From a virus, in IMG/VR virus record IMGVR_UViG_3300006802_000089, positions 1-64,000 of that record: DNA of 64,000 nucleotides, one strand, 5' to 3'. The notes beneath the pieces are model-generated. The model worked only from the letters and a program-made list of their open reading frames with translations. It did no database searches and was not told the origin of the DNA. Position 1 is the stretch's first letter, and each line of letters starts with the position of its first letter. The position numbers were made by a program, and so were the translations under genes. This document shows, in pieces, positions 7,916-63,992 of this stretch.

Positions 7916-7938
7916 CAGTTCCCTTTTTTATATAAATA

Positions 7939-8604: not shown

Positions 8605-8605
8605 G

Positions 8606-8881: not shown

Positions 8882-8912
8882 ATATATCTTTTAATATAAA
8901 TATCTAAACAGT

Positions 8913-8942: not shown

Positions 8943-8989
8943 TTCAATCTTTAATTTGTTAAATCGTTAACTAACTAATCAATTAACTA

Positions 8990-10663: not shown

Positions 10664-10693
10664 TTTTATTTTCTTTCTTTTTTGTTTTTAAAA

Positions 10694-11692
10694 TTAAATT
10701 AAACCTGCTAATTTCTTCCAACGATTTGCAAAAGCTGCGCTTTCAGAAATTATTTCTCGTTTTGGTGCTGTTGAAGCAGTAGGTTTAGAAGCATATGATT
10801 TAGATTCTTTTACTACTTTTTTCTTGTTCACCGGTTTTTTGAAGCTTTCGCTTAAGGTGCTAAATACCAATTTAACTTCTCTGGTGCTTGCTGCTCTGTC
10901 AAAGTTTTCAATAACTTTCATTTTTTGTGACTCATTAAGTTCAAAGTTACGGAACAACTTGTTAGTGTAAAGAAGTTTAGCGTTAAGAAGATTCACTTCA
11001 TTAATAGTATAACGAAGTTGTTTGATAACTGAATAAGCTTCATCTAACTCTTCTTTCATGTTATATGAACCTTCGTTAGTTTCTTCTTCTTCTTTGGCAT
11101 ATTTTTCGCCTTCATCTTCTTCTGCTAGAATCGATTCAATGATAGCATCAATATCTTCAGATACTAAATCCATTCCGGTACCATCTTCAGAAGCAACTTC
11201 CATCATATCTTCTTCTGCTTCTTCTTCCATCATACCTTCTTCTAACTCTGCGATGATTTCTTGCAATTCTAAATCTAGTTCAGAATCCATTTCTTCGTCG
11301 CCCATTTCTGGTTCCATGTCCATGTCATCCATTTCTGGTTCCATTTCGTCTTCGGGCGCTTGTTCAATATCACCTTCGTAATCATAAGTTCCATCGCTAT
11401 CGATGTCAATACCAACTCCAATAGAGGCAGGCATATCCATACCAGCCATGTCATCTGGCATATCGCCTAATTCTGCAGGAACTTCTTCTTCTTCGCCTGC
11501 TGCCATGTCTAACTCTGCAGTTGCTAATTCGTCTTCTTCGTCGTCAAGCTGCTCAGACAATTGTTTTCCTAGCATGCTTTGCAAACGATTTCCAAATGCT
11601 TCTTCAAGAGCTATTTTGGCATTTGCGATAGCAGTTTCTTTAACAGCTTTAGCATCAGCGATTGCTTCTTTTAGCAAATCTGTTTTTGCCAT
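10694..11692 (-). CDS. Prohead core scaffold protein (gp22-like)
   Basis: Very acidic coiled coil directly upstream of capsid gene; many (L/I)xE sites; C-terminal RWKKLAGL; AAGGAG SD. Confidence 0.8.
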   Translation of the reverse strand: MAKTDLLKEAIADAKAVKETAIANAKIALEEAFGNRLQSMLGKQLSEQLDDEEDELATAELDMAAGEEEEVPAELGDMPDDMAGMDMPASIGVGIDIDSDGTYDYEGDIEQAPEDEMEPEMDDMDMEPEMGDEEMDSELDLELQEIIAELEEGMMEEEAEEDMMEVASEDGTGMDLVSEDIDAIIESILAEEDEGEKYAKEEEETNEGSYNMKEELDEAYSVIKQLRYTINEVNLLNAKLLYTNKLFRNFELNESQKMKVIENFDRAASTREVKLVFSTLSESFKKPVNKKKVVKESKSYASKPTASTAPKREIISESAAFANRWKKLAGLI

Positions 11693-11831
11693 AGTTTGTT
11701 TCTCCTTAAATTTTTTTTGTGGAAATAAGATTATTTGAAATCTTAATAGAATATTTTTATTTGTTTGTAGACGCTATATAAAGGGTGATAGCGTATTCTA
11801 TAATAAATATAGCACCGAACTAAAAAACAGT

Positions 11832-11860
11832 AAAAAAGTCCTAACTTTTTTTGCTAGGAC
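11832..11860 (-). terminator. Intrinsic terminator after bS21 gene
   Basis: Minus strand GUCCUAGC-A7-GUUAGGAC-UUUUUU. Confidence 0.8.
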
Positions 11861-11882
11861 CAGTTTCAGGGTGTATTTGTGT

Positions 11883-12116
11883 CTATTGTTCTTTACTTCG
11901 GATGCGCTGTATGAATGCTGCTCTGCTTCGCTCTGCGCGTCTTGTAATGCTCGGTTTTGTAAACTCTGCACGTTCAAATGTTTGTTTTAATACTCCTGAT
12001 TTTTTAATTCGTCTTTTGAATTGTTTTAATGCGTAAGCAATATCTCCTTCAATAACCCGTACACCTAATCCGTTGCCTGGTAATGTGGTTTGATGTAATT
12101 TTTGTTTTTTATTCAT
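11883..12116 (-). CDS. rpsU: Phage-encoded 30S ribosomal protein bS21
   Basis: V.V..GDI..ALKQFKRRIKKSGVLK......F.KPS..RR...RAAFIQ matches the bS21 pattern. Confidence 0.9.
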   Translation of the reverse strand: MNKKQKLHQTTLPGNGLGVRVIEGDIAYALKQFKRRIKKSGVLKQTFERAEFTKPSITRRAERSRAAFIQRIRSKEQ

Positions 12117-12125
12117 ATGTGTATT

Positions 12126-12596
12126 TTATACGTTTCTGTTTGGTCGTAGCTGAGGATCTTGCATCACTTTGAATCGAAAATATCGTATTTCCGGTTTCTG
12201 TGAAAAGTATCCTTGAAGCTGTTGTGATTCTTTTGCTGGATCATCACCTAATCGAAAATAAAAATATCCTGCTCTGCGACTTTTAGATTTTCGATGCTTA
12301 ACCGGATATATTTTTTTCTTGATTGCAAATTGTTTGATTTCTTCTGCTACGTTGTCTGCCATTGCTGGGTCACGAAGCATGTATTGAACGCCTCCTTGAT
12401 AGTCTGTGATATTGTTGATGAGCTCTGCTTCTTCGAGTTCATTTTCACCCATCATTTGTTTTTGAATATCTGCGGTTTTTTCTAATTCTTTATTATAGAC
12501 TTTTAACGCTTCGATATCATCATCAGTTATTTTACTTCGTTCATTTTGTTCTCGAATGCCGAAGAATTCTTTATATGTATTTCGTTTCTTGCTCAT
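12126..12596 (-). CDS. Hypothetical head-region protein (start revised to ATG 12596)
   Basis: MSKKRNTYKEFFGIREQ; TAGGAT-N17-TATTAT promoter immediately upstream. Confidence 0.6.
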   Translation of the reverse strand: MSKKRNTYKEFFGIREQNERSKITDDDIEALKVYNKELEKTADIQKQMMGENELEEAELINNITDYQGGVQYMLRDPAMADNVAEEIKQFAIKKKIYPVKHRKSKSRRAGYFYFRLGDDPAKESQQLQGYFSQKPEIRYFRFKVMQDPQLRPNRNV

Positions 12597-12608
12597 TATC
12601 TCTTTTCT

Positions 12609-12637
12609 ATAATAATAAAAAAATTGCAAATATCCTA
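12609..12637 (-). promoter_or_regulatory. Class II promoter TAGGAT-N17-TATTAT for the 12596 ORF and bS21
   Basis: Matches class II consensus with 17-nt spacer. Confidence 0.45.
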
Positions 12638-12638
12638 A

Positions 12639-13055
12639 TTATTGTCCGTACAATCTTTCTAATTGATATCTTAAATCTTCATAACATCTTTTGGCGCGCG
12701 CTTCTGCTAAAGCAGCTTCTTGACAACTTTTGTCATATAGTTTTGCATCGTCGACAAGTCTTTTAACTTCTCGGCGAATCATTACCTGGTCGACATTTGA
12801 TCCTTCTGCTTCAGAAAGTTCTGTGGTTAATCGTTCTGCAATATCAACAACACGATTCACTTCGTTTGCCGATTCCTCATATTTTGAAGGGCCGCCATAC
12901 ATTTCATTACACCTATCTTCCATCATGCGCATGTATTCCACCAAATGCCGTTTTTCTTCTTCGGTTAGCGGAAGTTTCTGTTCTGCTTGTTGATTATCTA
13001 GAACATGTTTTTGTTCTTTGTATATTGATCGTACGTAATCTAAATTGCTTTTCAT
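12639..13055 (-). CDS. Hypothetical helical head-region protein
   Basis: 138 aa between protease and bS21. Confidence 0.6.
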   Translation of the reverse strand: MKSNLDYVRSIYKEQKHVLDNQQAEQKLPLTEEEKRHLVEYMRMMEDRCNEMYGGPSKYEESANEVNRVVDIAERLTTELSEAEGSNVDQVMIRREVKRLVDDAKLYDKSCQEAALAEARAKRCYEDLRYQLERLYGQ

Positions 13056-13068
13056 GTTATTTGTTTCT

Positions 13069-13707
13069 TTATATTCTGCATTTTCCGTCTTCGCATAAAA
13101 TAGAAGTTATAATTTCATGCACATGTTGATATTTGTTTGTTGGAGCTGCGTGTCCGGCACTTTCGAATTGAAATTGTCTTCCGCCTACTGGTGCAATAAA
13201 AGCTCCATGGGTTGAAGGATTGGATACTACATCCCAACAAATAAGTTCAAAATCAGGTTGAACTTCCATTAGTCCTTCTTTTAATTCTTTAACACTGCCT
13301 AAACCTCTTGAAGATATTCCTAATTTAATTCCTTCTTTAAACAATGATTTTAATATTTTTCCTGATGGTGTATCTAATACTTGTAAAGCTCCGCATAAAT
13401 CGTTGCCTTTCCACCAAATTTTTAAAATGTTATGTGACACATTATTCAGGTTAACAACTTGTGATTCTGGATGATCTAGTTCACCTAATGCTCTGTGTTG
13501 CTGAATGAATTCTCGATCATATTTTTTACATTCTCGTTCTAATATCTTTTTAGGATATACTCGTCCGTTTTGATTTTTAGCATCACATCTTTGCAACACA
13601 CCTTCTACTACGAATCCTCCAGGTACTCCGTAACGATCTCCGGTTGATTCATTCAATGTGTTTAACGGATTGAATGTTATAAAATCTTGTATAAGTTGTT
13701 TAGACAT
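13069..13707 (-). CDS. Prohead core protease (T4 gp21-like)
   Basis: KNQNGRVYP, ALGELDHP, VSH, LDTPSGKI, GISSRGLGS, D.V..PS motifs. Confidence 0.95.
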   Translation of the reverse strand: MSKQLIQDFITFNPLNTLNESTGDRYGVPGGFVVEGVLQRCDAKNQNGRVYPKKILERECKKYDREFIQQHRALGELDHPESQVVNLNNVSHNILKIWWKGNDLCGALQVLDTPSGKILKSLFKEGIKLGISSRGLGSVKELKEGLMEVQPDFELICWDVVSNPSTHGAFIAPVGGRQFQFESAGHAAPTNKYQHVHEIITSILCEDGKCRI

Positions 13708-13711
13708 AATG

Positions 13712-14266
13712 TTATTGATTTAGATTTCTAACTCTTTCTGCAATTGTTTTTAATTTGTTTGACATTTCTGTTAAAGCTTTAACCGCTGATTTATTAAAAG
13801 CTTCTCGTGTCATACCACTTTCAGATTTTAATCTGGTTGCATTATGAACAGCTTCTTCTATTTCACGTAATTTTTTATAAGCTTCTTTAATCGTACGATT
13901 CACTTTTGCTTCAGCCGACATTTTAGGATTTTCGGTAACATATTGTCCATATCCTTCGATAAGACGCTCATAACGTTTTTCCATTGCTTCAGCAACCTCA
14001 TTTTTCTTTAAGAAATACTTTCCTGTTACTGGAGCTACGCCAGCAGATGTAGACATTTCATCTACTTTTTCATGATATCCGTTTCCGTCACACTGTTCAC
14101 AACCTTTGCCTTCACATTCGGTGCATTGTTCTGCATTTTCTAAGGCATTAACCATTGGCTCTTCTTTATTTCCATCTCCATCAAAATCTAAATAATCAGG
14201 TTTTGCTTTTTCTGTTAATGGTACACGTTCAAATTTTCTTTTCATTTCCGTAATCAATTGTTTCAT
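13712..14266 (-). CDS. Head-region protein with EF-hand-like loop and CxxCxGxGCxxC motif
   Basis: PDYLDFDGDGNKEE; CTECEGKGCEQCDGNG; LITE/LTE/LIE sites. Confidence 0.6.
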   Translation of the reverse strand: MKQLITEMKRKFERVPLTEKAKPDYLDFDGDGNKEEPMVNALENAEQCTECEGKGCEQCDGNGYHEKVDEMSTSAGVAPVTGKYFLKKNEVAEAMEKRYERLIEGYGQYVTENPKMSAEAKVNRTIKEAYKKLREIEEAVHNATRLKSESGMTREAFNKSAVKALTEMSNKLKTIAERVRNLNQ

Positions 14267-15108
14267 TGGTGAACTCTGTTTAATTCGTCAACTAGGTCAA
14301 AATATCTTAGCAGTGATAATACATGAGACTCTTTTATAACTTTCATGTTTTCCACATTGCAAAGCATTTCTGCTAAATTTTCTATTTTTATACGAGCAAC
14401 ATCATCTTCAGTTTTTGAAACATGTTCTTTTAGTTGCTGTTTAATTTTTGGTATTTCCGTTTTAATATACCGTTTAAGAGAATCTGTATCATTAACGTGT
14501 GTTATGTATTGATTCAACAATTTTTTCTGAGCTTCTGACAGATTGGTGTATTTTGAATTAAACTTGTCTACCAACAATTTGTATGTTAATAATCGGGTAT
14601 CTTTGCTTTGTTTTCTGAATTCTTCGTATAATTCATCCGTTTCCGTTTTTTTAGCTATCATTGTGTGTTCTAGTATCACATCTTTGCATTTAGCAATTTG
14701 TTGAACGGTAGCTTGATCTGCATATTCAAACAACAGGTATGTAGAAGCTAAAACTTTGTAATTTGATATGCGAGCATTTGATAAAGAATCGAAAGAAAAA
14801 TTTTCTTGTATTTCTTTTACCAGATTGTATTTTTGTCTGCGCAATGTGCTTTGATTCAATTTGCGATAAGCTGCTTGAGCTTCTTTAATAAAATCTAACG
14901 CACGTGCTTCTGATTTGTGTTGTTCTTTGATAATTGAATTATACAAATTTAATTCTTTTGATAATTCCGTGTTTTTGCCGAAATATTTTTTTATAATATC
15001 TAATGCAATTGTTTTGTCAGAAGTTAGTGTTTCTGAAGTCAGTTTTCTAACTAACATTTCAAACAATATTCCGGTATTTTTGTACTTCGAATGTTTGAGT
15101 TTTTTCAT
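14263..15108 (-). CDS. Conserved head-assembly / prohead core protein
   Basis: 281-aa helical ORF between portal and protease (KHSKYKNTGILFE.L). Confidence 0.55.
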   Translation of the reverse strand: MKKLKHSKYKNTGILFEMLVRKLTSETLTSDKTIALDIIKKYFGKNTELSKELNLYNSIIKEQHKSEARALDFIKEAQAAYRKLNQSTLRRQKYNLVKEIQENFSFDSLSNARISNYKVLASTYLLFEYADQATVQQIAKCKDVILEHTMIAKKTETDELYEEFRKQSKDTRLLTYKLLVDKFNSKYTNLSEAQKKLLNQYITHVNDTDSLKRYIKTEIPKIKQQLKEHVSKTEDDVARIKIENLAEMLCNVENMKVIKESHVLSLLRYFDLVDELNRVHQ

Positions 15109-15155
15109 TTCTAGTATTCAGTTCTAGATTTATTTATATATAAATATTGTTACGC

Positions 15156-16994
15156 TTATAAAATATTGTTTTCATCTAGCAATGTTCCGCTATCTTCATC
15201 TTTTTTTGCTGACTCATACAGCATTTGATTTGCTAAACTTTTATTTTTCTTGTTTATTTTTTTCAATACATCAATATTTTCACGTCGCATATTATATGGA
15301 GAACTTGTGCTAGCTCGGCGACTGCCTCTTGGATCTGGTTGGAATGTTGTTCGTTGATTTTCCGGATCCATGTGTTGTTTGATTTGTTTGATACCCAGCG
15401 GATCCCATCCGAATGCATTCTTGTGTTGTCCAGATTTAATTCCTTCCGGCGGACGACCTCCTGGATCATCACTATCTGTACCCATATGCATTGAAGCTAA
15501 ATCATGAGGTGTTCCGTATGAAACTCCTGTTACCGTAGGATCATTTCCTTCTTGTTCAATTTGACTTTGACGGAATCTCAGTTTAAGATCTTCTATTACA
15601 TCGTTCCTTTCTTGCAACCATTGTTCTTCAGACATATTGAATATGTATTCGTATATGAATCTGTCTGAAACTAGTTTAGAATCTTTCATTGCGCCTGCTA
15701 ACTGAATTTTTTCATTCATGAGTGCAATTTTTTGTTGATCATAAATAATAGACGGAGCTGTTAATTCTAAATCAAAATTAACTAGATCTGCATCTTCATA
15801 TCCTTGAGTATATAAATGAACTATTGCTATTTTTGCAAGTTCTGATTCTATAATTTTTTGAATACGCTCAATAGTACGTGCAAAACGTATATCCATTGAT
15901 GCTAATGTGGATTTTCCTTCTACTCCTTCATCAAATCCTAAAAATGGTTTAGGTATTTTAAGAGCAGCCATCATTTTGTTTTTAACATATTCGATGTCAT
16001 CTATACCGGTAAATTCCATTCCCGGCAGTGAAGATATCTCAGTAGATGAATTTCCTCCTCGCACGGGTAAAAAATAATCTTCCAACATGTTGTTCAAGTT
16101 GAACTTCAAATTGTAATTACCTGTTCTTTGATCTACATATGGAACTTTTTTCATTTTGTTGATCATTTGTTCCATGAATGCATCAACTTCGTTAGGTGGT
16201 ATATTACCTATATCTACTTTGAATATTCTTTTTTCTGGAGCTCTCATTACACGATGAATAAGCATTGCATCTTCAAGCATTGTTAATTTTTGAAATTCTT
16301 GTCGTGCTCCTTCTAACATGGATCGGCCGTAAGGTAAGAAGTTAGAATCTGAAATTAATCTGAAATGTGCTATTTCAAACACATCATATTTTTCTTCTGG
16401 GTTAGAAACATGATGAAACTCTATTTCATAATCTCCAATATCTTCACGATATTCTTCCCAACGTTCCATTTCATAACTAGAAAATGGTCTAGCATTGATA
16501 ATACCTACTTCATCTGAAATATCTAGTTTTAAAAAGAAATCTCCGTATTTACACATATTTCGAATCCAAGGCCACAAGTTGAATTCTATGTTTAATACGT
16601 CATAAAACAGGTTGTTTAATATTTTTTGTATTCTGACATCTTCGGTTTTAATTGTTAAGATATCTCCGAACTGATTGGCTAATGTAGATTCATCGGCATA
16701 TATGTCTAATGCAGAACTGATAATAGGATCTTTATCCATCATTTCAAAATCAGTGTATAACTGCATTCTGTTTTGGTGCATATAATAATTTGAATCATAT
16801 CCACCCATACCTCCGACAGCATGACGATTAGTTCCATGCATTCTGGTGTATCTGTCGGCTATTTTGCTTCCTACTAAATTTCCGGATGATTGTAATCTGT
16901 TTGTGTCGACTACACGTAGTTTGTCTTTACCATACGCTCTTACGATAACGTTGGTACGAAACAGATTTCGTAATCTTCTTCTTAATGATGCCAT
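15156..16994 (-). CDS. Portal protein (T4 gp20-like)
   Basis: LEDAMLIHRVMRAPEKRIFKVDIGN.P, EDYFLPVRGG, I.SLPG, ALKIP, DIRF motifs. Confidence 0.95.
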   Translation of the reverse strand: MASLRRRLRNLFRTNVIVRAYGKDKLRVVDTNRLQSSGNLVGSKIADRYTRMHGTNRHAVGGMGGYDSNYYMHQNRMQLYTDFEMMDKDPIISSALDIYADESTLANQFGDILTIKTEDVRIQKILNNLFYDVLNIEFNLWPWIRNMCKYGDFFLKLDISDEVGIINARPFSSYEMERWEEYREDIGDYEIEFHHVSNPEEKYDVFEIAHFRLISDSNFLPYGRSMLEGARQEFQKLTMLEDAMLIHRVMRAPEKRIFKVDIGNIPPNEVDAFMEQMINKMKKVPYVDQRTGNYNLKFNLNNMLEDYFLPVRGGNSSTEISSLPGMEFTGIDDIEYVKNKMMAALKIPKPFLGFDEGVEGKSTLASMDIRFARTIERIQKIIESELAKIAIVHLYTQGYEDADLVNFDLELTAPSIIYDQQKIALMNEKIQLAGAMKDSKLVSDRFIYEYIFNMSEEQWLQERNDVIEDLKLRFRQSQIEQEGNDPTVTGVSYGTPHDLASMHMGTDSDDPGGRPPEGIKSGQHKNAFGWDPLGIKQIKQHMDPENQRTTFQPDPRGSRRASTSSPYNMRRENIDVLKKINKKNKSLANQMLYESAKKDEDSGTLLDENNIL

Positions 16995-17040
16995 ACTTGA
17001 TATTATTTTTATATAAATATAACTTAATAAAGATCAGCGG

Positions 17041-18620
17041 CTATTTTATTAACCAAGTTAAATCTTCATCTCCGTAACCGTTATTCCAACTCCATCCGGT
17101 GTCTTGTCTATTCATGCCGCTGGTTGAAATAATTCCATTTGTTCTTGTGAACTGAGAAATTGCTTTTTTATGCAATTCAATACCATGTTGTCTGAGTTTA
17201 ACGATGTATCTCTTAACCATAATCCGATACAAAAACTCATAACAAGGTCGTCATTATAACCTATTTCTGCTTGTGCTTTTCCGTTTTGCCATTTAAACAC
17301 AAACATTTCTTGTATTAATCTTTTACTTCGTATTTTAGGAGTTCCTTCTCTCATGTACATTTCAAGTGCAGATATCATCAATGGCCGAGTTCTGCTCGTG
17401 GTAGATACACCCGGAACCATTTTAGTTTTATCTTTTACGTCATATCCTTTCATGAGTTGCACTTCTAAATCTACATATCCATCATCTTTATACGTGTAAA
17501 ATAAATTTTCATAGTTTCGGTCTAGTGCTGGTTGTATTGCGGCCCAACCTATGTTTGCATTTTCAATTGCAAGTAACGCATTATTCCATTCTGTTGCAAC
17601 CGTTACCAACATGTTGCCGTATTCATTCGGAGGAAGTTTACCTTTATATTCTGCAACTTGAGTTACTGTTTCTACGTCAATAACATGAAACGCAGACCAG
17701 TCGGCACTATCACCTCGAGCAACGTCAGCTACTACTATATAATTTTTAGAATAATCCGGATACTCCCAAATCCAATAGCCGTTATCATATCCTCTTCTTT
17801 CTAATGGCTCTGAACATTCTTGTTCAAATCGTTGCAGTATAGCACCATCTATTACAGTGTGTCCGGAACTTACAAAGTCACAATCACATTCTTGTGCTGC
17901 TCCTCTTTCTCCTAAAAGTTGTGTTTGTTCATTTCTCCAGGTTTGATCTCGTTCCGGATGCACCGTCCAATGCAGTTTGATGTTATGCCATTGTGTTTGT
18001 GCATTAGTTTCTCCGTCAACCCATGTTTGATGAAACCAGTTACCGATACCGTTAGGAGTAGATAACACAATTGCACCACCACCAGTAGATAGGGTTGCTT
18101 GTGATGCTATCCATATTTCTTCAATGTTTCGAATGAATGCGGCCTCGTCTACTATTAGCAGTGATAAGGCTTCTGAACGTGCTCCTGTGGTTGCTGATGA
18201 TACTGCTTTGATTTGAGAACCATTTTTAAATTTCAGTGATAATTTGTTGTCTGCTTCGATAGTTCCTTTCAACCAACTCGGCAGATTGTCATGCATCACA
18301 CGAACCTTTGTAACAAGATTTTTTGCTACTTCTTGTGTGGTTGCGATAACTAGAGTATTGAAATCTTCATTGAACAACATGCTCCACAGAGCAAACCCGG
18401 CACTAAGAGTTGAAATACCTAACTGTCGAGACTTTAATATAACACTGTATCGGTTATCTCTTAATTCTTCTAGTACCTCTTCCTGAAATTCATACAGATT
18501 AAATTTAATCTTTCCTCGTTTAGGATGTTGGATAAAACAATAGTTACGCATGAAGAACACAGGATCTTTAGCACACCGAACATATTGCTCCTGGATAATC
18601 TGTTTTAAGTTTTTTGACAT
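17041..18620 (-). CDS. Terminase large subunit (T4 gp17-like); apparent 1-nt frameshift near the C-terminus at ~17198
   Basis: KSRQLGIST Walker A, LLIVDEAAF Walker B, STPNG, ADVARG and NDDLVM nuclease motifs. Main ORF is 17112..18620; the likely true tail is in the frame of 17041..17232. Confidence 0.93.
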
Positions 18621-31580: not shown

Positions 31581-33134
31581 TTATAGTTTGTTTAAAATTG
31601 TCAATGGTTTAGTTTTACCGTCGGCTCTTTGGAAATAAAATTTATTATCAGCTGGATTTAAAATAATTTTTTCATATTTATTCTCCGCCTCTGTGGCCCC
31701 TTTTTTCTGTAAAAATCTTAATTCTTTAGTAGTTGGATCTAATGTTATACGAGCTTTATAATCGTCGGAGTCAACCGCTTCTTTTGCGTTTGCTAACATG
31801 TCTAAATACACTGCATCGGACCAAGTACCATCATCCTTTTTCAGGAACTCTTTTCCGCTGATATAATACTTAGAATATTCTAATTTTACATTTCCTTGTG
31901 CATCAACCATTGCTATTGGGCCGGATAGCTTCTCATTTGCATTGTAAAATTGTATATTTCCACTGCCATCATCATCCCACCACTGCGTTTTCCGTTCTAT
32001 CCCATTCACATAGTTAGTTTTTCGATACACGGATCCATTTTTATTAAAACCAATTTCTTCGCCTTCTTTTTTGTCATTCACATAGTAGCGCTTTTTGAAA
32101 ACAGTGCCATCCGAATGGTACTCTATTTCTTCACCTTCTCGTTTTCCATCTACATAATTTCTAATAAATTCTTCTTGTCCAGATGCATAATACTCTATTT
32201 CTTCACCTTGTAGTATACCATCTACATAGTTTCTGACTGCTTTTTTTGTTTCATTCGAGTAATAATCTGTTTCTATACCTTCTCGTTTACCATTCTTAAC
32301 ATTGGTTTTCCTGATAATCGTTCCATGCTCACCACGTGTATATGCTGTACCGTTAAATAATTCATCATTTAATTTTAACGTGCCGTCTTCGTCAGTAAGA
32401 TCTGACATTGCAACTACTTTATCTTCTGCATCTATAGGTTTTAAACGATTTACAATAGCAACTTGTATTTTCGACAATAACGTCTTAATGTCTTGTTCAA
32501 GAAGTTCAATTTCTTTTATGCGTTCATCATATGATTGTTTAGTCATGAACAAAGAAGATCCGATTACAAATTCATTGGATCTCGGACGCATTCCAGATTT
32601 AGTTTTTACAGCAACCTGTACAGTTTCAAACGTTTGTACATAACTCTGCCATCCTTGCTGTAGCGCTGCATTCTGTTGTTCATATGACTGTATTGTTTGT
32701 GCGTCGACATCTCGTGTTCCATTTTCAGCATAGTATGCTATATCAGCTTGCAATTGCTTTTGTTGAGTAATTAACGTGTTATATGCCGCTAAAATTGATT
32801 CTGCTGCCGGAATAATAATAACATCTATTTTTCTGTCGGTAAATGGAACTGTTGCTATGTATACATATGTTCCGTCTGCATACTCGCCGGATGTACCATA
32901 CGTTTCATTGTCTTTTATCGAAGCGATATTTTGCTGCATCGTGCGATTTTTCTGAAATATAGTAAATCCTTGAATATCAATATAATTAACGTTGTATACA
33001 TCTGCATATTTTTTTTGTTTATTAAGCAGTTGTGTAGATTCCCATCCGGTTAGTTTATATTTTTCGGTGCCTCCTTGCTCAAATAAATTTTCAAGAATTA
33101 TTTGTTCTAACAATATATTATTATCAAATTTCAT
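31581..33134 (-). CDS. MORN-variant repeat protein
   Basis: About five 24-aa repeats, e.g. NYVDGKREGEEIEYHSDG; N-terminal ILLEQIILENLFEQ. Confidence 0.75.
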   Translation of the reverse strand: MKFDNNILLEQIILENLFEQGGTEKYKLTGWESTQLLNKQKKYADVYNVNYIDIQGFTIFQKNRTMQQNIASIKDNETYGTSGEYADGTYVYIATVPFTDRKIDVIIIPAAESILAAYNTLITQQKQLQADIAYYAENGTRDVDAQTIQSYEQQNAALQQGWQSYVQTFETVQVAVKTKSGMRPRSNEFVIGSSLFMTKQSYDERIKEIELLEQDIKTLLSKIQVAIVNRLKPIDAEDKVVAMSDLTDEDGTLKLNDELFNGTAYTRGEHGTIIRKTNVKNGKREGIETDYYSNETKKAVRNYVDGILQGEEIEYYASGQEEFIRNYVDGKREGEEIEYHSDGTVFKKRYYVNDKKEGEEIGFNKNGSVYRKTNYVNGIERKTQWWDDDGSGNIQFYNANEKLSGPIAMVDAQGNVKLEYSKYYISGKEFLKKDDGTWSDAVYLDMLANAKEAVDSDDYKARITLDPTTKELRFLQKKGATEAENKYEKIILNPADNKFYFQRADGKTKPLTILNKL

Positions 33135-52249: not shown

Positions 52250-53269
52250 TTATACTAGTATTTGCTGCTGGCAACATTCGACACCAATCTGTTGCAGTGT
52301 TAATTCTTTTGCCTTAGCTTCAACCTCGATGTCTAAGTCGTCAACACCATATGTGTTAGGTAGATCGACAATATAGTCGGAATGAGCCTGCTCTTTGATC
52401 TTGGTGAATGCCTTGTATTCTTTGTGAAATGTAGGCCAATCAGCAATATTGTCCATGCTGATGCCGTTATGCTCGAACATTCGCTCGATAAGCAGTTGCT
52501 GTTCGCGTCTGCGAGACTCACTGTAATGAGTGCACTGAGTAACACCGTGCTTAGTCCATGTCTCACGTGCCATGAAGAATGCCTCCTGCTCGGATATGTC
52601 GCCGGTATTGAAAGTGTGATGCCAATAGTCAAACGTAATAGGAATATCGGTATGCACATGCACCATCTCATACAATTCACGCACAGAATACAAAGAAGCC
52701 TTGTCGTCATTCTCTAGCACAAGACGTGCACGTAAGCCGTCAGACAATCGTGAATAGTTTTGAAGCCATCGTGCAATAGTGCCGGACTTGTCGCCGTATG
52801 CTGCGCCTACATGAATATTGATAAGATTGTCAAAACTAGGAGCATAACCCATAAGGTCAAACATTTCGCTGTGTCGTTCGAGACCTATGATGCTGTTGTC
52901 GACAACATCGGCCTTAGGCGAACCTAGTATGTGAAATGGACCTGGGTGTGTAGTTAGACGATGACCATGCGCGCGAGCAAAGTCGCCGGCAGCACGAAGA
53001 TGATGTGTAATTTCATCTAGGCCAGGTAAATCTGTTAGCTCGTAATGATTCCAACGTGGAAATATCTCGGAACCGATGCGAAACAATCGTATGCCTTGCT
53101 GTTCGTTCCACTGCAGTATAGGAAGCAAATCTTTTGCATTTTGCAGAGATATGTCAGATGCTAACTGCATACCACCTTGTCGAAATTTGCGATCAATCAT
53201 GGTGCGACCGGTGCGGATGCCCTGCTTGCCGAGCTGCATGTTGATACAACAATAACCAAATCTAATCAT
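52250..53269 (-). CDS. uvsE: UV DNA damage endonuclease (UvsE/UVDE)
   Basis: IRFGYCCIN, LFRIGS, RLTTHP, NIHVG, LVLENDD, FDYWHH, HYSE, AHSDY, EAKAKE motifs. Confidence 0.93.
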   Translation of the reverse strand: MIRFGYCCINMQLGKQGIRTGRTMIDRKFRQGGMQLASDISLQNAKDLLPILQWNEQQGIRLFRIGSEIFPRWNHYELTDLPGLDEITHHLRAAGDFARAHGHRLTTHPGPFHILGSPKADVVDNSIIGLERHSEMFDLMGYAPSFDNLINIHVGAAYGDKSGTIARWLQNYSRLSDGLRARLVLENDDKASLYSVRELYEMVHVHTDIPITFDYWHHTFNTGDISEQEAFFMARETWTKHGVTQCTHYSESRRREQQLLIERMFEHNGISMDNIADWPTFHKEYKAFTKIKEQAHSDYIVDLPNTYGVDDLDIEVEAKAKELTLQQIGVECCQQQILV

Positions 53270-53283
53270 AGTATTTTTTTATT

Positions 53284-53312
53284 AATATAAGTAAAATTTT
53301 TCAAAAATCCTA
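53284..53312 (-). promoter_or_regulatory. Class II promoter TAGGAT-N17-TATATT (uvsE)
   Basis: Direct sequence match. Confidence 0.55.
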
Positions 53313-53336
53313 ATAACGATGTTTTTTAATTTTCGT

Positions 53337-53345
53337 ATATTTATA
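53337..53345 (+). promoter_or_regulatory. Class I (late) motif ATATTTATA on plus strand
   Basis: Orientation flips with the plus-strand gene at 53368. Confidence 0.65.
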
Positions 53346-53367
53346 ATAAATAAAATAGAATGTATAC

Positions 53368-54609
53368 ATGATACGGTTAAAACATTTATTAATTGAACAA
53401 ACACGTGTTTCTCCAACTACTTACAACACTGTGTCTATTGAAACAACGATGCAAACTTTGACAAGGGACATTGCTAATTATAATCCTAATACTGGTTATA
53501 TTGCAATAACCAATGGTAATCTATGGCTAGCAACACAACGATCTAATTCTTTAAGAGATTTATTATTGCAGCCAGAAACACAAGAGAGTATTGGTATTAC
53601 AAGACCCATAAACCCTAATTGGATCCGAATCCAGCCACCTACAGTACAAGGAGAAGGCCAAGCCAATCAGAAAGTTGTAGGAACATTACAAGCTAGATTA
53701 TTTCGTCCGGAGGAAAGACAAGAAGAATATCCGTATCAAATCAATTATGAATGGCATGAAATAAATAATGTTCCTCATATCCTTGTTACAAAACAAGGAT
53801 TAGGTGCACCTCAACCGCATAATGTTAATAAAACAGGAGCTAATAGTGAATTGGATGTCAATAAAGATACTGCTGTGTATAATAAAATGAAACAATTCCA
53901 AAACAAAATTCCGGAAAATAATACGAAGATCTTAAGAGCTCTTTCAGGAGCCGGAACAGCACAAGGCCCAGTTTACACGGATACTACATGGGGTATCATG
54001 ATACCAGTACCTCAGGATCTTTATAAATATGTTGCAAAACAAGGAACATTTATATATTTTACAGAAGAACAAAAAGATAGTTATATTAAAACTAAAGATA
54101 TGATAACAAAATATGTAGATAATACAGGAATTAGAACAGGTGAAAACTATACTGATTTTACTCAGGTTCGTGGCAGTGGAGATACTCAGTTTGGAAACAC
54201 AACGGGTAGGTCTGCAACTGCATGGGACAAACAAGGAAATTATAATAATAGTTCACAAGTAAACGTTGTATCATATGATAAATCTACAACTGGTAATGTT
54301 CCTGGCCAGGTTATATCTGGCAAAGAGGAAAAATGGGAAACATTGGATGTTATTAACTTAGATGAAAATTATTTTATAGCAAACATGATAAGTTTGAAGC
54401 CGGATACATATAATACTATATTTGCAAATATAAAAAATATATTAGCAAACAAATTTGAACAAGAACAACTAGCATTCGTAGATTTAGCAGTTACAATACA
54501 AGGATTTGCATCAACAGCCCGTGCTACTAACAGATTATCCGGTGGTCTCACAACTCCTGATCATGATTACGGCGGCCGCGTGCCAGCAAATCTTTGGATA
54601 TATAGGTAA
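53368..54609 (+). CDS. Putative packaged protein (MIRLKHLLIE) with OmpA-C-like segments in permuted order
   Basis: NLWLATQRSNSLRDLL near N-terminus; VTIQGFAS near C-terminus. Confidence 0.55.
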   Translation: MIRLKHLLIEQTRVSPTTYNTVSIETTMQTLTRDIANYNPNTGYIAITNGNLWLATQRSNSLRDLLLQPETQESIGITRPINPNWIRIQPPTVQGEGQANQKVVGTLQARLFRPEERQEEYPYQINYEWHEINNVPHILVTKQGLGAPQPHNVNKTGANSELDVNKDTAVYNKMKQFQNKIPENNTKILRALSGAGTAQGPVYTDTTWGIMIPVPQDLYKYVAKQGTFIYFTEEQKDSYIKTKDMITKYVDNTGIRTGENYTDFTQVRGSGDTQFGNTTGRSATAWDKQGNYNNSSQVNVVSYDKSTTGNVPGQVISGKEEKWETLDVINLDENYFIANMISLKPDTYNTIFANIKNILANKFEQEQLAFVDLAVTIQGFASTARATNRLSGGLTTPDHDYGGRVPANLWIYR

Positions 54610-54631
54610 ATACTTAATTCTGTTAAAATTA

Positions 54632-55195
54632 TTAATCAAAAATCGCGGTATAATAATCTTCCCACTCAGTGTAAAAATTTTTTCGGCCAACATAAGATCT
54701 AAACGCAAATCCGGTACCGATATATTTGTTGTTAGGATCTAAAAGTGCATCTCTGTGAGCATCTGATGTCATCCATTGTCGTACATGTAACTCGGCATTA
54801 TGTTTTACCCGCGTTAGAAAATTTCCATTTCCATAAGTAATTACTTCATCCATTCCGTTACCAGAATGTTGATATTTGTTTTTACTCATCCATACCGAAT
54901 GACGTTGAGCTTCTTTCATGAAATCGTCACGAGGAATAAGTGCATTCAATCCTCGTTTCGTTCTTTCATAATTAATGAAACGAATCATGATTTCTCTGTA
55001 TGTTTCGATGTGTTGAAGATTTAACTCTGCAACACTGTCTGCGTATAATAAATCAGACAAATCAACTTCATGATAAGTATCACATAAACTATCTAATAAT
55101 TCAAGATGTACTTGTCTTAAAGAATCTCTATACTTAGTTTGGGAATGTGATAAAGTAACAATCGTTACGGCTAGTATTACTAATAACTTTTTCAT
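54632..55195 (-). CDS. Secreted CAP/SCP-domain protein
   Basis: Signal peptide; INYER..RGL..L, AQRHS.WM, H, E, WMTS..HR..LL, IG.G. Confidence 0.85.
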   Translation of the reverse strand: MKKLLVILAVTIVTLSHSQTKYRDSLRQVHLELLDSLCDTYHEVDLSDLLYADSVAELNLQHIETYREIMIRFINYERTKRGLNALIPRDDFMKEAQRHSVWMSKNKYQHSGNGMDEVITYGNGNFLTRVKHNAELHVRQWMTSDAHRDALLDPNNKYIGTGFAFRSYVGRKNFYTEWEDYYTAIFD

Positions 55196-55234
55196 GGCTT
55201 TAATTTTTAATTTGTTAACTATTTAATTTTATAT

Positions 55235-55263
55235 ATTATATGTAATATTTTTCACAAATCCAA
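55235..55263 (-). promoter_or_regulatory. Class II promoter TTGGAT-N17-TATAAT (CAP gene)
   Basis: Direct sequence match. Confidence 0.6.
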
Positions 55264-55287
55264 ATATCACTGAAATTAAAAACGAAT

Positions 55288-55296
55288 ATATTTATA
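55288..55296 (+). promoter_or_regulatory. Class I (late) motif ATATTTATA, 4 nt before ATG
   Basis: Plus-strand orientation matching gene 55301. Confidence 0.65.
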
Positions 55297-55300
55297 TTAA

Positions 55301-56749
55301 ATGATTAGATTAGCCGATATACTGAAAGAATCCGAATATGCTCATTACCGCAATCTGCGTTACGGATTAACGGAACAAGAAGAAGGCAATTGGTTTACTA
55401 ACTGGATAAAAGACGCTGGCCAAGAATATGTTAAATATAAAAAAGCTGAAACTGAAGCACATATGGAACTGGCTCGTAAACTATACGAATATCGACATGG
55501 CCTTTTAGATATAGCAGAAATAGCAACTCTTTTCTGGCCTCCGGTATCTGCAGCAATAGGTGCCGCTCATGCTGGACTATATTTTTATGAAGGCGATCCT
55601 GAAATGGGTGTTTTATATTTAGTATTTGCTGGAATGACAGGACTTCCTCCTGCACCAATTAAATGGCTAGCTAAATATATAAAAGCTCTTAAAACCGGCG
55701 ATCAAGTCGTAGCAAAAAGTATTGAACAGGGACTAGGACAAACTGAAAAAAAAGCATTAGAAAAAATGTCTGAAATGGGTGCAAGAAAATCAGGAGAAGA
55801 GGTAGTAAAATGGACATCAAAAGGCCTGGCTCAAAACGCTGATTTTTTTGCTAGAGAGGCATTTAGCAATCAAATAGGCAAATTTGCATCTAAATTGCCA
55901 GCACAATCATTAAAACCATCATATGGTCGAGTAGTATTAAATATACTCAAATATATATTCAGATACGCAGGGAAATTTTTGCTCGGTGGATCTAAGTTTG
56001 TCGGCACACTATATGTATTTCATCATATTTTAAAAGTGTATCATTGGTTATGGGAAACGTATTATTACGTCGGACAGAGTCCAGAAGAATTTAGTAAAGA
56101 ATTAGGATTAGACAACACAATAAATTGGGATTCAGCAGATCCAATATTAAAACAAGTGATTACTGGTGAGTCTACTGAAAAAAATACTATTAAATTATCA
56201 AGTTTAATATCAGAAAACTCAAATATGCCTGATTTCCTAGGAAAAATATTCGATGCAGTCGAAGATTGGTCATCACAATTAGATGAAACGTCAAACTCAA
56301 TTATTGAACTAATGACAACTAAATCAGAGTTGTCTGACAATGAAATTAAATCGATAGCTAAGACTATACTAAGTAAACACATGGATATGAGCAATGCGCC
56401 TAGAAAAAAACGAGCATATATAGATTCTGGTGATGTTACTCAGTCTGTAGCTGCAACTGATCCAAATGCAAAACAAGCTGCAGCTGCATTATACAAGTCC
56501 ATGAAAGGCTTAGGCACCGACGAAACATTGTTGTTTAAAACTTTACAAGACATGATAGATAATCCAACTTGGGGATATCAAGCAGTTGTCGAATTTAATA
56601 GTAACTCAAAATACAATGAGGGTGATGATTTAAAATCCTGGTTAGAAGGTGATTTATCATTTGGATCAGAACGAAAAGCATTGGAAATGCTTGATCAGAT
56701 CATGAATACTGCTAATAATACTAGTAACTCCGGCGGTGGTGGATGGTAA
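55301..56749 (+). CDS. Putative packaged protein: targeting peptide, pre-toxin-TG-like hydrophobic segment, C-terminal annexin repeat
   Basis: MIRLADILKE; HGLLDIA...LYFYEGD; AAALYKSMKGLGTDETLL...DLKSWLEGDLS. Confidence 0.65.
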   Translation: MIRLADILKESEYAHYRNLRYGLTEQEEGNWFTNWIKDAGQEYVKYKKAETEAHMELARKLYEYRHGLLDIAEIATLFWPPVSAAIGAAHAGLYFYEGDPEMGVLYLVFAGMTGLPPAPIKWLAKYIKALKTGDQVVAKSIEQGLGQTEKKALEKMSEMGARKSGEEVVKWTSKGLAQNADFFAREAFSNQIGKFASKLPAQSLKPSYGRVVLNILKYIFRYAGKFLLGGSKFVGTLYVFHHILKVYHWLWETYYYVGQSPEEFSKELGLDNTINWDSADPILKQVITGESTEKNTIKLSSLISENSNMPDFLGKIFDAVEDWSSQLDETSNSIIELMTTKSELSDNEIKSIAKTILSKHMDMSNAPRKKRAYIDSGDVTQSVAATDPNAKQAAAALYKSMKGLGTDETLLFKTLQDMIDNPTWGYQAVVEFNSNSKYNEGDDLKSWLEGDLSFGSERKALEMLDQIMNTANNTSNSGGGGW

Positions 56750-56768
56750 AATATAAATAATAAAAATT

Positions 56769-58343
56769 ATGATACGATTAAAAAGAATACTAGAACAAAA
56801 ATCTTCATATAGTAACATTGATAAGTTAGATAAAAATTTCGAAATTAAATTATCAAGCTTGATATCAGAACAAATCACAGATACAAATCAAGCCGGTAAA
56901 ACAGTAGACGCAGCTGCGGCAGATTTACACGATTCAATGGATTGGCTGGGAACAGACGAAGACTTATTATTCGCTACTTTAAAAGCAATGGCTGATGAAC
57001 CGGCTTGGGGTCAACAAGTTATCGATCGATTTAATAGTGCTGAGAAATACAGTGAAGGTGATGATTTGAATGATTGGTTGGATGGAGATTTGTCTGGCAA
57101 TGATTTGACAAAAGCAAAGGCGTATATAAAGACCATCGAAGCTGTATCGTCCGATCAACAAGAATCGAAATCGATTGATGAAAAATTAATGCTAGAAATA
57201 AGAGAAAACGCACAACAGCTTTATGGAGCTCCATCTGAAGATTTAGCGGACCAGATATTCGGTTGGCTTTGGTGGGAGAATGGATTAAAGATATTAGGAG
57301 TTTTAACAATTGCGCTGGCTGCAGGTGCTGGCCTGGAGAGGCTGGGGGTGGACCTGAAAAACACTGCCCTAGGTAAGGGTGTTAAAAAGTTACTTGCAAT
57401 ACCGGGATGGATTTTTAAAAAAGCATGGATTAGTGGAGTGTCATGGCCCTTATTCCGAGGTGTTTTAAGAATTCCTTCAAAATATATGCCATGGCTGATC
57501 AAATTTTCAAGTAAAACATTTCAACGAAACTGGATTAAAGAATCGTTATTAAAACCATTTCGCAATGTTATGAATAAATACGAAAAAGAATCCTATGAAC
57601 ATACAAAAATAAAAACATGGATAGACAATATTTCAGTTGCCTTAGATAAAGAATCTGATACTGTAGATGCATTAGTAACCAGTGTATATAATAAACTAAA
57701 AACATCTGCTTATGAAGTATTATATAATCTACGCAATGGAAAGATGTCGCAGTACGCCACCCTGCCGGCCAGCATGGAAGCGGGTTTTGTAGAAATTTTA
57801 GGAGATTTATATCGAATAGATCCAGCAAGATTTGGTAAATCATTTGCAGAAGAGATGATGACAAAATTAGAAGTCACAGCTGAAAGTCGTTCTAAAATTT
57901 TAGCTGAATTAGAAAAGTTTTATCCAAAAGTTGAAAAAGAATCGGAAACAATAATTCGAGCGTACAAAGAATTGCCTACGGCAGTAAAAGAATTACCAGG
58001 ATATGAAAATATATATAACAGATATTCTAACAAAATAGCAAATGCTGAAGAAACAATTGAATTATTATATAATAATATAAAAACTGGAAATTTAGGGCCT
58101 GGTTCCGGACTTCCAAATTACTTTAATCGAATTGCTAACTCGATCGAGCGGCCGTCGACAACCAATCCATCCAAATGGTATAATGAGTTTGGTCAATATT
58201 CTGATAACGTTCGTATTCAAATAGGTTGGGATCCTATTAAACAACGGCCGTTTGACCACGCTGTGAAAAGATTTCAAAACGAGATGAACCGAGATCAGAT
58301 GTTATGGGATCTTAACAATACCATGAAATCAGCTATTAAATAA
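56769..58343 (+). CDS. Putative packaged protein: targeting peptide, annexin repeat, TM segment
   Basis: MIRLKRILEQ; AADLHDSMDWLGTDEDLL...DLNDWLDGDLSG; ILGVLTIALAAGAGL. Confidence 0.65.
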   Translation: MIRLKRILEQKSSYSNIDKLDKNFEIKLSSLISEQITDTNQAGKTVDAAAADLHDSMDWLGTDEDLLFATLKAMADEPAWGQQVIDRFNSAEKYSEGDDLNDWLDGDLSGNDLTKAKAYIKTIEAVSSDQQESKSIDEKLMLEIRENAQQLYGAPSEDLADQIFGWLWWENGLKILGVLTIALAAGAGLERLGVDLKNTALGKGVKKLLAIPGWIFKKAWISGVSWPLFRGVLRIPSKYMPWLIKFSSKTFQRNWIKESLLKPFRNVMNKYEKESYEHTKIKTWIDNISVALDKESDTVDALVTSVYNKLKTSAYEVLYNLRNGKMSQYATLPASMEAGFVEILGDLYRIDPARFGKSFAEEMMTKLEVTAESRSKILAELEKFYPKVEKESETIIRAYKELPTAVKELPGYENIYNRYSNKIANAEETIELLYNNIKTGNLGPGSGLPNYFNRIANSIERPSTTNPSKWYNEFGQYSDNVRIQIGWDPIKQRPFDHAVKRFQNEMNRDQMLWDLNNTMKSAIK

Positions 58344-58348
58344 ATTTA

Positions 58349-58900
58349 TTATTTCTTAACAAATCCGTTCAAAAAGTCTTTTTGCCGTTGAACTGCTTGA
58401 TCTAATTCGGTATTTTTTCGTTTAACAGATTTTGATTTTTTCTTAGTGTCATTTGAAGTGCTGCGGTTAGCAGCATTTTTTGTGGCATCAGATTTTCTTG
58501 ATGTGCTAGTTGTATTTGAGCGGTCATTGCTATTAGAATCTGATCTAACGCCTGTTGTTTGAGTTGGTATGCTATCAGTTGTCCTTCTGGACTCTGCATG
58601 TATTGTTCTATCCGCAGTTTCTGGTTTAACTCCTCGGCGGACCGTTTCTGATTCGAGTAGGATACCGTAGTCTGCGTGTTCCGACTTGTAATCACCGATT
58701 TGAATGCCGCACGTATACGTGAAACCAGCTGCTTTAATTTTGTAACGAACATGTTCATGTGTTTTATATGTTTCTACTAGTTCTCCACGAATAAATTCGC
58801 CTAACCAAGTCATACACACAAAATCTCCAGGATTGAATTGTGGTTTTTTGAATTTTGCCTGTATGTACTTAGGAACTTCTTGTTTTTTCTTTTTTGCCAT
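58349..58900 (-). CDS. Hypothetical protein (SH3-like N-terminus, Ser/Thr/Lys-rich tail)
   Basis: PQFNPGDFV...G.LV...RYKI pattern. Confidence 0.55.
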   Translation of the reverse strand: MAKKKKQEVPKYIQAKFKKPQFNPGDFVCMTWLGEFIRGELVETYKTHEHVRYKIKAAGFTYTCGIQIGDYKSEHADYGILLESETVRRGVKPETADRTIHAESRRTTDSIPTQTTGVRSDSNSNDRSNTTSTSRKSDATKNAANRSTSNDTKKKSKSVKRKNTELDQAVQRQKDFLNGFVKK

Positions 58901-58901
58901 A

Positions 58902-59387
58902 TCAATTAGGACATAAAACCGGATTGATACCGATTATGCTATAAACTCGTAGATATTTAGTTAATTTGTCTTTGCGAAACACTTTTTCGGTGTTTAAATC
59001 TCTGCTCAAGATATATCCGTTATCAAAGAAATTGTATACTATGTGACGTAAAGCCTTCAAGCTATTAGATTCCAATAAAACTTGTTCTTCATCTATCAGT
59101 ATGTCTACTCGTTTATGAGTTTCGGGTATATCTTCCGATTCAACTTCAAAATACCCTCGTTCTGAATCATCGTCATCGTCTGGATCTTCTTCTAAATTTT
59201 TAGTTAATTCATCAAAGAAGTCTCCTAGTATTTGCGAAAAGCCATCTTTCTGGATGGCATCATGTGATTCGAATATATCTGCTAGATATTGAAATTTTTC
59301 TGCCGGACTATGTTTCAACATGCTTTGGTATTCTTTTTTGCTAACCTTGATATGTTGAAAAACATTTTTCATTGCATTATACTTCAT
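58902..59387 (-). CDS. Hypothetical protein
   Basis: 161-aa ORF in operon. Confidence 0.6.
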   Translation of the reverse strand: MKYNAMKNVFQHIKVSKKEYQSMLKHSPAEKFQYLADIFESHDAIQKDGFSQILGDFFDELTKNLEEDPDDDDDSERGYFEVESEDIPETHKRVDILIDEEQVLLESNSLKALRHIVYNFFDNGYILSRDLNTEKVFRKDKLTKYLRVYSIIGINPVLCPN

Positions 59388-63236: not shown

Positions 63237-63992
63237 TTACATGTTAGGATCGCCAGGTGTATCTATTCCATCGGTAGTGAATTTGACATCGATTGGTTTA
63301 CCTATCGTGCTTTTGCTAGGTACAGGAACGTTGCCTTGCATTATCGGATTAGATTGTGCTTGCAAATCAAACAATACAAACTTACCATGTTTAGTAAAAC
63401 CTACGTTACCTCCATGGGCTTCGCTGAAATTTATATTCATAGCACGCACATCTTGTAACACTTTTTGTCGTTGATCAATTATAGTATTTAACTGATTGTA
63501 CACATCTTGTGTTATGCTATTTTTAGAAAGATCATAATCAATCGATCTTCGAAGATCACTGTCCGGCCGCGATGACGAAAAATACATATATTTAATTCCA
63601 TCCCATGCATCTTGCATTTCTGATGTTAACGGAGTTACGCGATCCATGTATATAGCATATATATGATTATATATAGTTTGAATATCGTTTGAATCTTCAC
63701 TAGGAAGACGAAATGCGGCTAAAGGTCTCACACTATATATATTAATCAGATGTGGACGTCTGGCTCTTTTTGATATTCGAGCAGCTAATGCAGCTTCGTT
63801 CTGATCTGCGGTAAATTTAATTACTTTGCCTCGCTGAGTAGCAATTGCTTGTCCATAATATCCGCCTCCTAGCCATTCTGCCGGCGAATCTGCAAATTGA
63901 TCAAATATCATCTTCAGTGTTTCTGGCTGTCTTAATTCACCATACACTTTGGTCAAGTTCGTTTCATTCAATATTTGTTTAAGTAGTATCAT
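63237..63992 (-). CDS. Protein-kinase-like fold protein with MILLKQILNE peptide
   Basis: LGGGYYG Gly loop, VIKFT, NE, EAHGGN loop, FDL motif. Confidence 0.65.
   Translation of the reverse strand: MILLKQILNETNLTKVYGELRQPETLKMIFDQFADSPAEWLGGGYYGQAIATQRGKVIKFTADQNEAALAARISKRARRPHLINIYSVRPLAAFRLPSEDSNDIQTIYNHIYAIYMDRVTPLTSEMQDAWDGIKYMYFSSSRPDSDLRRSIDYDLSKNSITQDVYNQLNTIIDQRQKVLQDVRAMNINFSEAHGGNVGFTKHGKFVLFDLQAQSNPIMQGNVPVPSKSTIGKPIDVKFTTDGIDTPGDPNM

Follow-up and report, generated by a model that had tools for sequence, protein, structure and literature searches.

What would two proteins with an annexin-type repeat do in a phage that builds its head from T4-type components? This question is raised by two tandem genes, here called P1 and P2, in the IMG/VR virus record IMGVR_UViG_3300006802_000089, a linear sequence of 74,397 bp for which CheckV estimates a completeness of 44%; the window analysed here consists of its first 64 kb (64,000 nucleotides). 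Nearly all genes lie on the minus strand, and the plus strand holds three open reading frames (ORFs): P1, P2, which follows after a gap of 19 nt, and a third one upstream of both. A preliminary description made from the letters alone had proposed that P1 and P2 are injected membrane-binding proteins, each with an annexin repeat, hydrophobic segments and a common targeting peptide. Our analysis indicates that both proteins almost certainly hold a genuine annexin repeat, and that their other parts are consistent with storage in the phage head and delivery to the host membrane, a reading that is tentative and has to be weighed against other explanations.

The strings from which annexin repeats had been proposed are present as quoted: residues 393-453 of P1 read AAAALYKSMKGLGTDETLL...DLKSWLEGDLS, and residues 49-110 of P2 read AAADLHDSMDWLGTDEDLL...DLNDWLDGDLSG. 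The two modules align with each other without gaps over 68 amino acids (59% identity, E 5e-20), while their DNA is 62% identical (68%, 75% and 43% at the first, second and third codon position); the third-position identity of only 43% points to an old duplication of the module that was kept by purifying selection on the protein. In a phmmer search of the last 115 residues of P1 against all PDB chains, all 70 matches were annexins, with a best whole-chain E-value of 7.8e-14 and a best single-repeat independent E-value (i-E) of 0.012, and the first 144 residues of P2 retrieved annexin IV (E 0.002). Among 1.84 billion representative proteins phmmer found 156 matches; nine of the ten relatives that were scanned match the Pfam Annexin family (PF00191, gathering cut-off 25 bits), eight of them above the cut-off with 33-380 bits, the nearest with 48-380 bits, short single-repeat proteins included. 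Closest among the short relatives are single-repeat annexins of bacteria that carry a membrane anchor at the N-terminus. A profile built from both phage modules and nine short relatives (A2) matched 76 PDB entries, every one an annexin; for a single repeat the best i-E was 1.2e-12, and this match spans about 70 residues. Run as a hidden Markov model against every ORF of the 74-kb fragment, the same profile found a single repeat each in P1 and P2 and no further one; neither protein has the canonical core of four or eight annexin repeats.

An annexin repeat, familiar above all from animals and plants, is a five-helix module that in annexins attaches to acidic phospholipid head groups by way of Ca2+, for which the K-G-x-G-T loop and an Asp or Glu cap provide the site; in the type II site the (M/L)-K-G-x-G-T loop is followed by the Asp or Glu cap 38 residues downstream. 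An AlphaFold2 model of the P1 repeat, made with the A2 alignment, reached a mean predicted local distance difference test (pLDDT) score of 86.9 and has five main helices (residues 388-401, 408-420, 422-434, 444-451 and 454-476), a predicted structure that reproduces the A-E fold of annexins. The top 50 Foldseek matches of this model in PDB, like those of the profile, are all annexins (probability 0.99-1.00, root-mean-square deviation 2.1-3 Å over 76-82 residues), with E-values that, for so short a domain, stay at only about 0.04. Of a single-sequence AlphaFold model of whole P1 (mean pLDDT 43) the annexin part alone is usable, and a predicted complex of the two annexin modules scored 0.00, which speaks neither for nor against their binding to each other. 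The loop of P1 is intact, and HMMER alignments pair its WLEGDLS with I-K-G-D-T-S-G of annexin repeat 4 or 8, from which retention of the cap Asp can be deduced. P1, P2 and P0142 have in common an insertion of six residues, D-N/E-P-x-W-G, located between helix B and helix C. Since every test of sequence and fold besides Pfam's own model agrees, the earlier identification of these modules as annexin repeats is borne out. It is probable that the module binds a membrane or its lipids.

Table 1. Features of the P1-P2 locus and related genes (positions in the window)
Feature	Position	Strand	Description
P1	55301..56749	+	482 aa; leader and conserved N-terminal block, then a hydrophobic hairpin, a linker and a single C-terminal annexin repeat
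P2	56769..58343	+	524 aa; leader and IKLSSLISE, then an N-terminal annexin repeat, a transmembrane-like helix and an orphan C-terminal region
P1 annexin repeat	56462..56710	+	aa 388-470; loop M-K-G-L-G-T, insertion DNPTWG, cap Asp in WLEGDLS
P2 annexin repeat	56901..57143	+	aa 45-125; loop M-D-W-L-G-T, cap Asp in WLDGDLSG
P1 leader	55301..55330	+	MIRLADILKE; hydrophobic at positions 1, 4, 7, 8; Glu at 10
P2 leader	56769..56795	+	MIRLKRILE; I-L-E site at positions 7-9
P1 conserved block	55331..55378	+	aa 11-26, SEYAHYRNLRYGLTEQ; ends in second L-x-E site (LTE, aa 23-25)
P1 putative membrane hairpin	55499..55669	+	aa 67-123; two hydrophobic helices, invariant EGD loop
IKLSSLISE in P1	56189..56215	+	aa 297-305, in long helical linker; ends in L/I-x-E site
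IKLSSLISE in P2	56844..56870	+	aa 26-34
P2 most hydrophobic segment	57264..57356	+	aa 166-196, WLWWENGLKILGVLTIALAAGAGLERLGVDL; followed by Trp/Lys-rich stretch
Promoter-like motif	55288..55297	+	ATATTTATAT, directly upstream of P1
gp21-type prohead serine protease	13069..13707	-	Pfam Peptidase_S77, 115.6 bits; PHROG 207 head maturation protease, E 3.9e-55
Third plus-strand leader ORF	53368..54609	+	413 aa, leader MIRLKHLLIE, without family match
CAP-domain protein	54632..55195	-	187 aa, signal-peptide-like N-terminus, CAP (cysteine-rich secretory protein) domain, Pfam E 4e-11
UV damage endonuclease UvdE homologue	52250..53269	-	Pfam 195 bits; promoter-like motif copy upstream

The sequences suggest that P1 and P2 are modular, membrane-directed proteins that combine a leader and hydrophobic helices, possibly able to enter a bilayer, with one annexin repeat, and the hydrophobic segments already noted in the preliminary description are real in both. 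P1 belongs to a family of four members, aligned here as A1 (P1 and three metagenomic homologues). The three homologue clusters keep the leader and the hairpin core, lack the annexin module and differ in their C-terminal parts, which argues that the annexin repeat is a swappable accessory module. At the position of the hairpin two of the homologues (P0002 and P0003) reach 19-residue Kyte-Doolittle values of 2.0-2.15, which are of transmembrane grade. The block that follows the P1 leader, SEYAHYRNLRYGLTEQ, is nearly invariant at 14 of its 16 positions across all four members and is far more conserved than the remainder, over which the homologues are 22-37% identical; such strong conservation could reflect function or recent recombination.

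In P2 the order of modules is reversed, with the annexin repeat preceding the hydrophobic helix, which has a 17-residue apolar core (19-residue Kyte-Doolittle maximum 1.56) and is followed by the orphan C-terminal region. The nonapeptide IKLSSLISE is common to P1 and P2 only. Both proteins are rich in Trp (12 residues in P1, 15 in P2), and acidic residues outnumber basic ones in each (54 Lys and Arg versus 63 Asp and Glu in P1, 69 versus 74 in P2). P2 yielded no homologues, either for the whole protein or for residues 130-524, and what P0142 has in common with it is limited to the annexin repeat and the overall architecture. Residues 1-383 of P1 had no match in GenBank phages; IMG/VR searches with P1, P2 and A1 gave no relatives, and metagenome contigs scanned with A1 and with a pattern of the DNA that encodes the conserved N-terminal block gave nothing. 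For the parts outside the annexin repeats, ESM Atlas returned only scores below 0.9 with template modelling (TM) values below 0.5, and provided no lead.

The targeting-like N-terminal peptide claimed for both proteins is indeed shared, and more widely: the leader M-I-(R/K/S/L)-L-x-x-I-(L/I)-x-E opens at least ten ORFs of otherwise unrelated sequence, many of them without hydrophobic segments. Its Arg and Leu codons vary between copies (AGA, CGA and CGG; TTA, CTT, CTG and TTG), and this synonymous variation points to selection on the peptide rather than on the RNA. A strict DNA pattern for the leader has five matches in this genome versus none in the reversed control, and none in Flavobacterium phage immuto. 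Pfam assigned no family to seven other leader-bearing ORFs, and an ORF with a looser form of the leader (31581-33134) gave only a sub-threshold match to MORN_2. Three leader-bearing ORFs (63237-63992, 63999-64697 and 64713-65474) also end in a common tail, GIDTP-x(3-4)-M, which is not present in P1 or P2 and which may, by analogy with T4 Alt, a protein processed at both ends, be a second processing or targeting signal.

The phage also encodes a gp21-type prohead protease (Table 1), a candidate enzyme for removal of the leader, along with other T4-type head genes (Pfam matches of 254 bits for Gp23 and 232 bits for Portal_T4, gp20); the nearest capsid protein is that of Flavobacterium phage vB_FspM_immuto, with 54% identity. 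In T4, the first ten residues of internal proteins (MKTYQEFIAE) load cargo into the core of the prohead, with targeting set by residues 4 and 7 and cleavage by gp21 directed by residues 8 and 10 (PMC9026906); gp21 cuts after L/I-x-E (PMC9026906, PMC3012670). Judged from this layout, the leader described here is, by a small balance, best read as a prohead-targeting and processing signal. The LTE at residues 23-25 of P1 and the IKLSSLISE of both proteins offer further L/I-x-E sites, and the mature proteins could therefore be shorter still.

The motif ATATTTATAT upstream of P1 occurs in 17 exact copies in the window, versus 1.4 expected, and in 20 in the 74-kb fragment (window 2431-63234 and L005 712-2606), every copy being intergenic and on the coding strand. 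Within the window the genes that follow such a copy include those for fibre, portal and baseplate, and the three exact copies beyond the window stand upstream of leader-bearing ORFs; the small-ORF array at 66.7-74.4 kb has none. Read as its reverse complement, the T4 late box TATAAATA is contained in the motif. A scan of 53200-58600 for sigma-70 promoters and terminators gave no more than chance.

The sequence shows the annexin repeat and the architecture, the promoter-like motif, the protease gene and a leader held in common; from these a route can be sketched in which packaging, cleavage, ejection, lipid binding and a final role of P1 and P2 would follow one another. P1 and P2 would be produced alongside the structural genes, and the leader would carry them into the prohead core, where the gp21-like protease would trim them after L/I-x-E at the leader and possibly also at IKLSSLISE. 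They would then exit the head together with the DNA, and at the host envelope the annexin repeat would dock on acidic phospholipid with Ca2+, after which the hydrophobic helices would insert where the DNA enters or close by. Of the readings considered here, the best supported is thus a tentative one, in which P1 and P2 are head-loaded, protease-processed, ejected and active on the host membrane through the annexin repeat, and its chances we place just short of even; taken for itself, ejection with action at the host membrane is possible, with the balance somewhat against it. Of the earlier wording "injected membrane-binding", the second part finds backing in the annexin repeat and the hydrophobic segments, and other viral annexin ORFs carry transmembrane segments or a peptidoglycan-binding domain. 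The first part is plausible by inference, because of the T4-like layout of a leader ending in L/I-x-E, the gp21 homologue, and a promoter-like motif at P1 that is common to structural genes. The more specific roles named in the preliminary description, sealing of the puncture, exclusion of superinfection or the countering of membrane defences, are conjectural.

Several observations weigh against this proposal. At the level of the module, the search with PF00191 divided from that with the purpose-built profile, which matches annexins only: the Pfam Annexin model gives P1 15 bits (E 0.027) over residues 393-415 only (23 residues), below its cut-off, and gives no match for P2. The P1 cap lies 44 residues past the loop and not 38, owing to the six-residue insertion (DNPTWG) after helix B, and the Ca2+ loop of P2 has Trp instead of the first Gly, with the cap Asp kept; the putative Ca2+ site of P2 may thus be weakened, or the Trp may serve direct membrane insertion. 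The P1 hairpin itself is moderately hydrophobic (19-residue Kyte-Doolittle maximum 1.39). At the level of the pathway, packaging, cleavage and ejection are deduced from an uncultured contig. The internal proteins known from T4 are small and soluble with a basic charge, whereas P1 and P2 are net acidic proteins of 55-60 kDa that hold membrane-type helices next to a lipid-binding module. Copies of the promoter-like motif also stand before genes for nucleases and for repair, and the motif is therefore not restricted to structural genes, marking instead a non-early class. Finally, the three plus-strand genes oppose the structural block and have a gene for a secreted CAP-domain protein and a UvdE gene as neighbours, and, as the main difficulty, transmembrane-type helices should tend toward the producer cell's own membrane.

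The last of these points leads to an alternative in which P1 and P2 are never ejected, and act as membrane tethers: with hairpin and annexin repeat on the inner leaflet of the producer's inner membrane, their leaders would grip the scaffolding core or the portal, and gp21-like cleavage after L/I-x-E would free the prohead. T4 provides a precedent, as its proheads initiate on the inner membrane via gp20 and the viral chaperone gp40 (PMC9958956). Such tethers would explain why helices of transmembrane grade occur on proteins with a core-targeting leader, and would be consistent with the gp20 and gp21 homologues and with the common promoter-like motif. However, P1 and P2 show no similarity to known assembly chaperones in Pfam, PHROGs or ESM Atlas, no homologue is detectable in the closest cultured relative or in other GenBank phage records, and the freely swapped C-terminal modules of the P1 homologues suit accessory cargo more than a core assembly factor, so that we regard this explanation as unlikely. 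To an equal degree unlikely is that P1 and P2 are ordinary membrane proteins of the infected cell, involved for example in superinfection exclusion, lysis timing or the countering of membrane-acting defence, with a leader that has another purpose. Both combine hydrophobic helices with a module of the lipid-binding type, their closest short relatives are membrane-anchored bacterial annexins, and they lie on the opposite strand in an accessory-looking region beside the CAP-domain protein and UvdE; yet the leader is short, charged and amphipathic, unlike a signal peptide, it follows the T4 layout position for position with the gp21 motif at its end, it opens many ORFs without any hydrophobic segment, and P1 uses the motif seen at structural genes and not the arrangement of the small-ORF array. 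That a short helical motif came to resemble annexins by chance or by convergence, without common fold or function, is very improbable and close to refuted, for the Pfam scores and the Foldseek E-values near 0.04 that would favour it are set against annexin-only PDB matches (70 of 70 and 76 of 76, i-E 1.2e-12), relatives far above the Pfam cut-off, and a confident five-helix model whose top 50 Foldseek matches are all annexins.

With regard to the neighbouring genes, the third plus-strand ORF has a one-mismatch copy of the promoter-like motif nearby (53337-53346), and the CAP-domain gene lies on the opposite strand between this leader-bearing ORF and P1. PHROGs has no family matching P1, P2 or the third ORF, and the DNA of 53000-59000 has no similar sequence among GenBank phages.

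Looking beyond this genome, the survey of phages for annexins had a divided outcome: the module was not found in 50,697 GenBank phage records (tblastn, three queries), but it is encoded by four uncultured viral contigs of IMG/VR, here L001 to L004. A literature search found no paper on phage annexins, and a fold search of BFVD gave a single plausible viral annexin-like fold (A0A6J5RF64, probability 0.95). L001, with an estimated completeness of 83%, has a run of five small ORFs at 8441-11034, all of which start with a membrane anchor; three of them in a row have an annexin repeat, one apiece, and in two of the three it scores above the Pfam cut-off. In L002 (6760-17539) two annexin ORFs of 565 and 250 amino acids lie within a cluster that shares a leader of its own, MK(I/V/L)TKSQLKQIIKEE, with which the 250-residue annexin ORF itself starts; at least six ORFs begin with MK(I/V/L)(T/S)K.QL.QIIKEE and three with M(Q/K)(K/L/T)LFE(N/S)WR. 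This leader family differs from MIRLxxILxE and sits in a different phage. The occurrence of two annexin ORFs amid leader-bearing genes means that the pattern of paired single-repeat annexin proteins is found in an unrelated viral contig as well, and its recurrence hints that two single repeats cooperate. L003 encodes at 148-2385 a protein of 745 amino acids with a PG_binding_1 domain (69 bits) and two Annexin repeats (47.5 bits), which ties phage annexin modules to the cell envelope, and L004 encodes a protein of 541 amino acids with two annexin repeats and a transmembrane segment. Many ORFs around the latter (2609-18535) share the N-terminal motif (I/K)(K/R)SF(S/T/N)(E/D)(F/Y), which may represent another leader family. 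No gp21 or gp23 homologues were found in these other annexin-bearing contigs, which are fragments of 36-83% completeness. In bacteria, a pattern-limited genome scan found annexins in many phyla, and the survey of Kodavali et al. 2014 (PMC3894181), in which phages are not mentioned, described single repeats, transmembrane fusions and neighbouring short gene pairs in flavobacteria.

Taken singly, annexin repeat and capsid-targeting leader are of known kinds; new is their union on membrane-inserting phage proteins, as a pair that recurs in L002. Annexins are viewed as proteins that serve membrane repair and trafficking in eukaryotes, with bacteria contributing a few outliers, and here the repeat appears as a swappable module on proteins that resemble phage head cargo. 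The full picture, in which a T4-like phage, probably of Bacteroidota, stores two annexin membrane proteins in its head and injects them, so that they dock through envelope Ca2+ and acidic lipids at the entry site, is doubtful as a whole; if true, it would bring to light a class of ejected membrane effectors not known before, and a bacterial virus would for the first time be seen to have a functional annexin module. Ejection would also offer insight into how myoviruses handle the cytoplasmic membrane during DNA entry, which is poorly understood in T4-like phages, and would extend the range of capsid-targeting cargo from small soluble inhibitors to membrane proteins. As single repeats, the phage modules would be small and tractable objects for determining what an annexin minimally needs for binding lipid and Ca2+, and they add data on the spread of annexin repeats among bacteria and their viruses.

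Three known systems invite comparison. The ejection proteins gp14, gp15 and gp16 of T7 enter the host envelope and form a defined core stack. As is proposed here for P1 and P2, they are stored in the head, leave it with the DNA and insert into host membranes; they differ in having neither an annexin module nor a T4-type leader. No relation of sequence or fold between P1 or P2 and these T7 proteins turned up, although no search was aimed at one. The capsid-targeting sequence of T4 resembles the leader described here in its hydrophobic residues at positions 1, 4, 7 and 8, in the Glu at position 10, in its occurrence on unrelated proteins and in the presence of a gp21-type protease with L/I-x-E specificity in the same phage, whereas the sequence itself differs, being MIRLxxILxE here. 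The bacterial single-repeat annexins (PMC3894181) share with the phage modules a five-helix repeat of about 70 residues, an (M)-K-G-x-G-T loop, altered in P2, and an acidic cap, and in either group the loop often has Trp or a hydrophobic residue. Compared with them, the modules of P1 and P2 carry the D-N/E-P-x-W-G insertion and score below the Pfam cut-off, and they are encoded by a phage as parts of proteins of 480-520 amino acids, joined to a leader of the capsid-targeting type and to a hairpin or an orphan domain.

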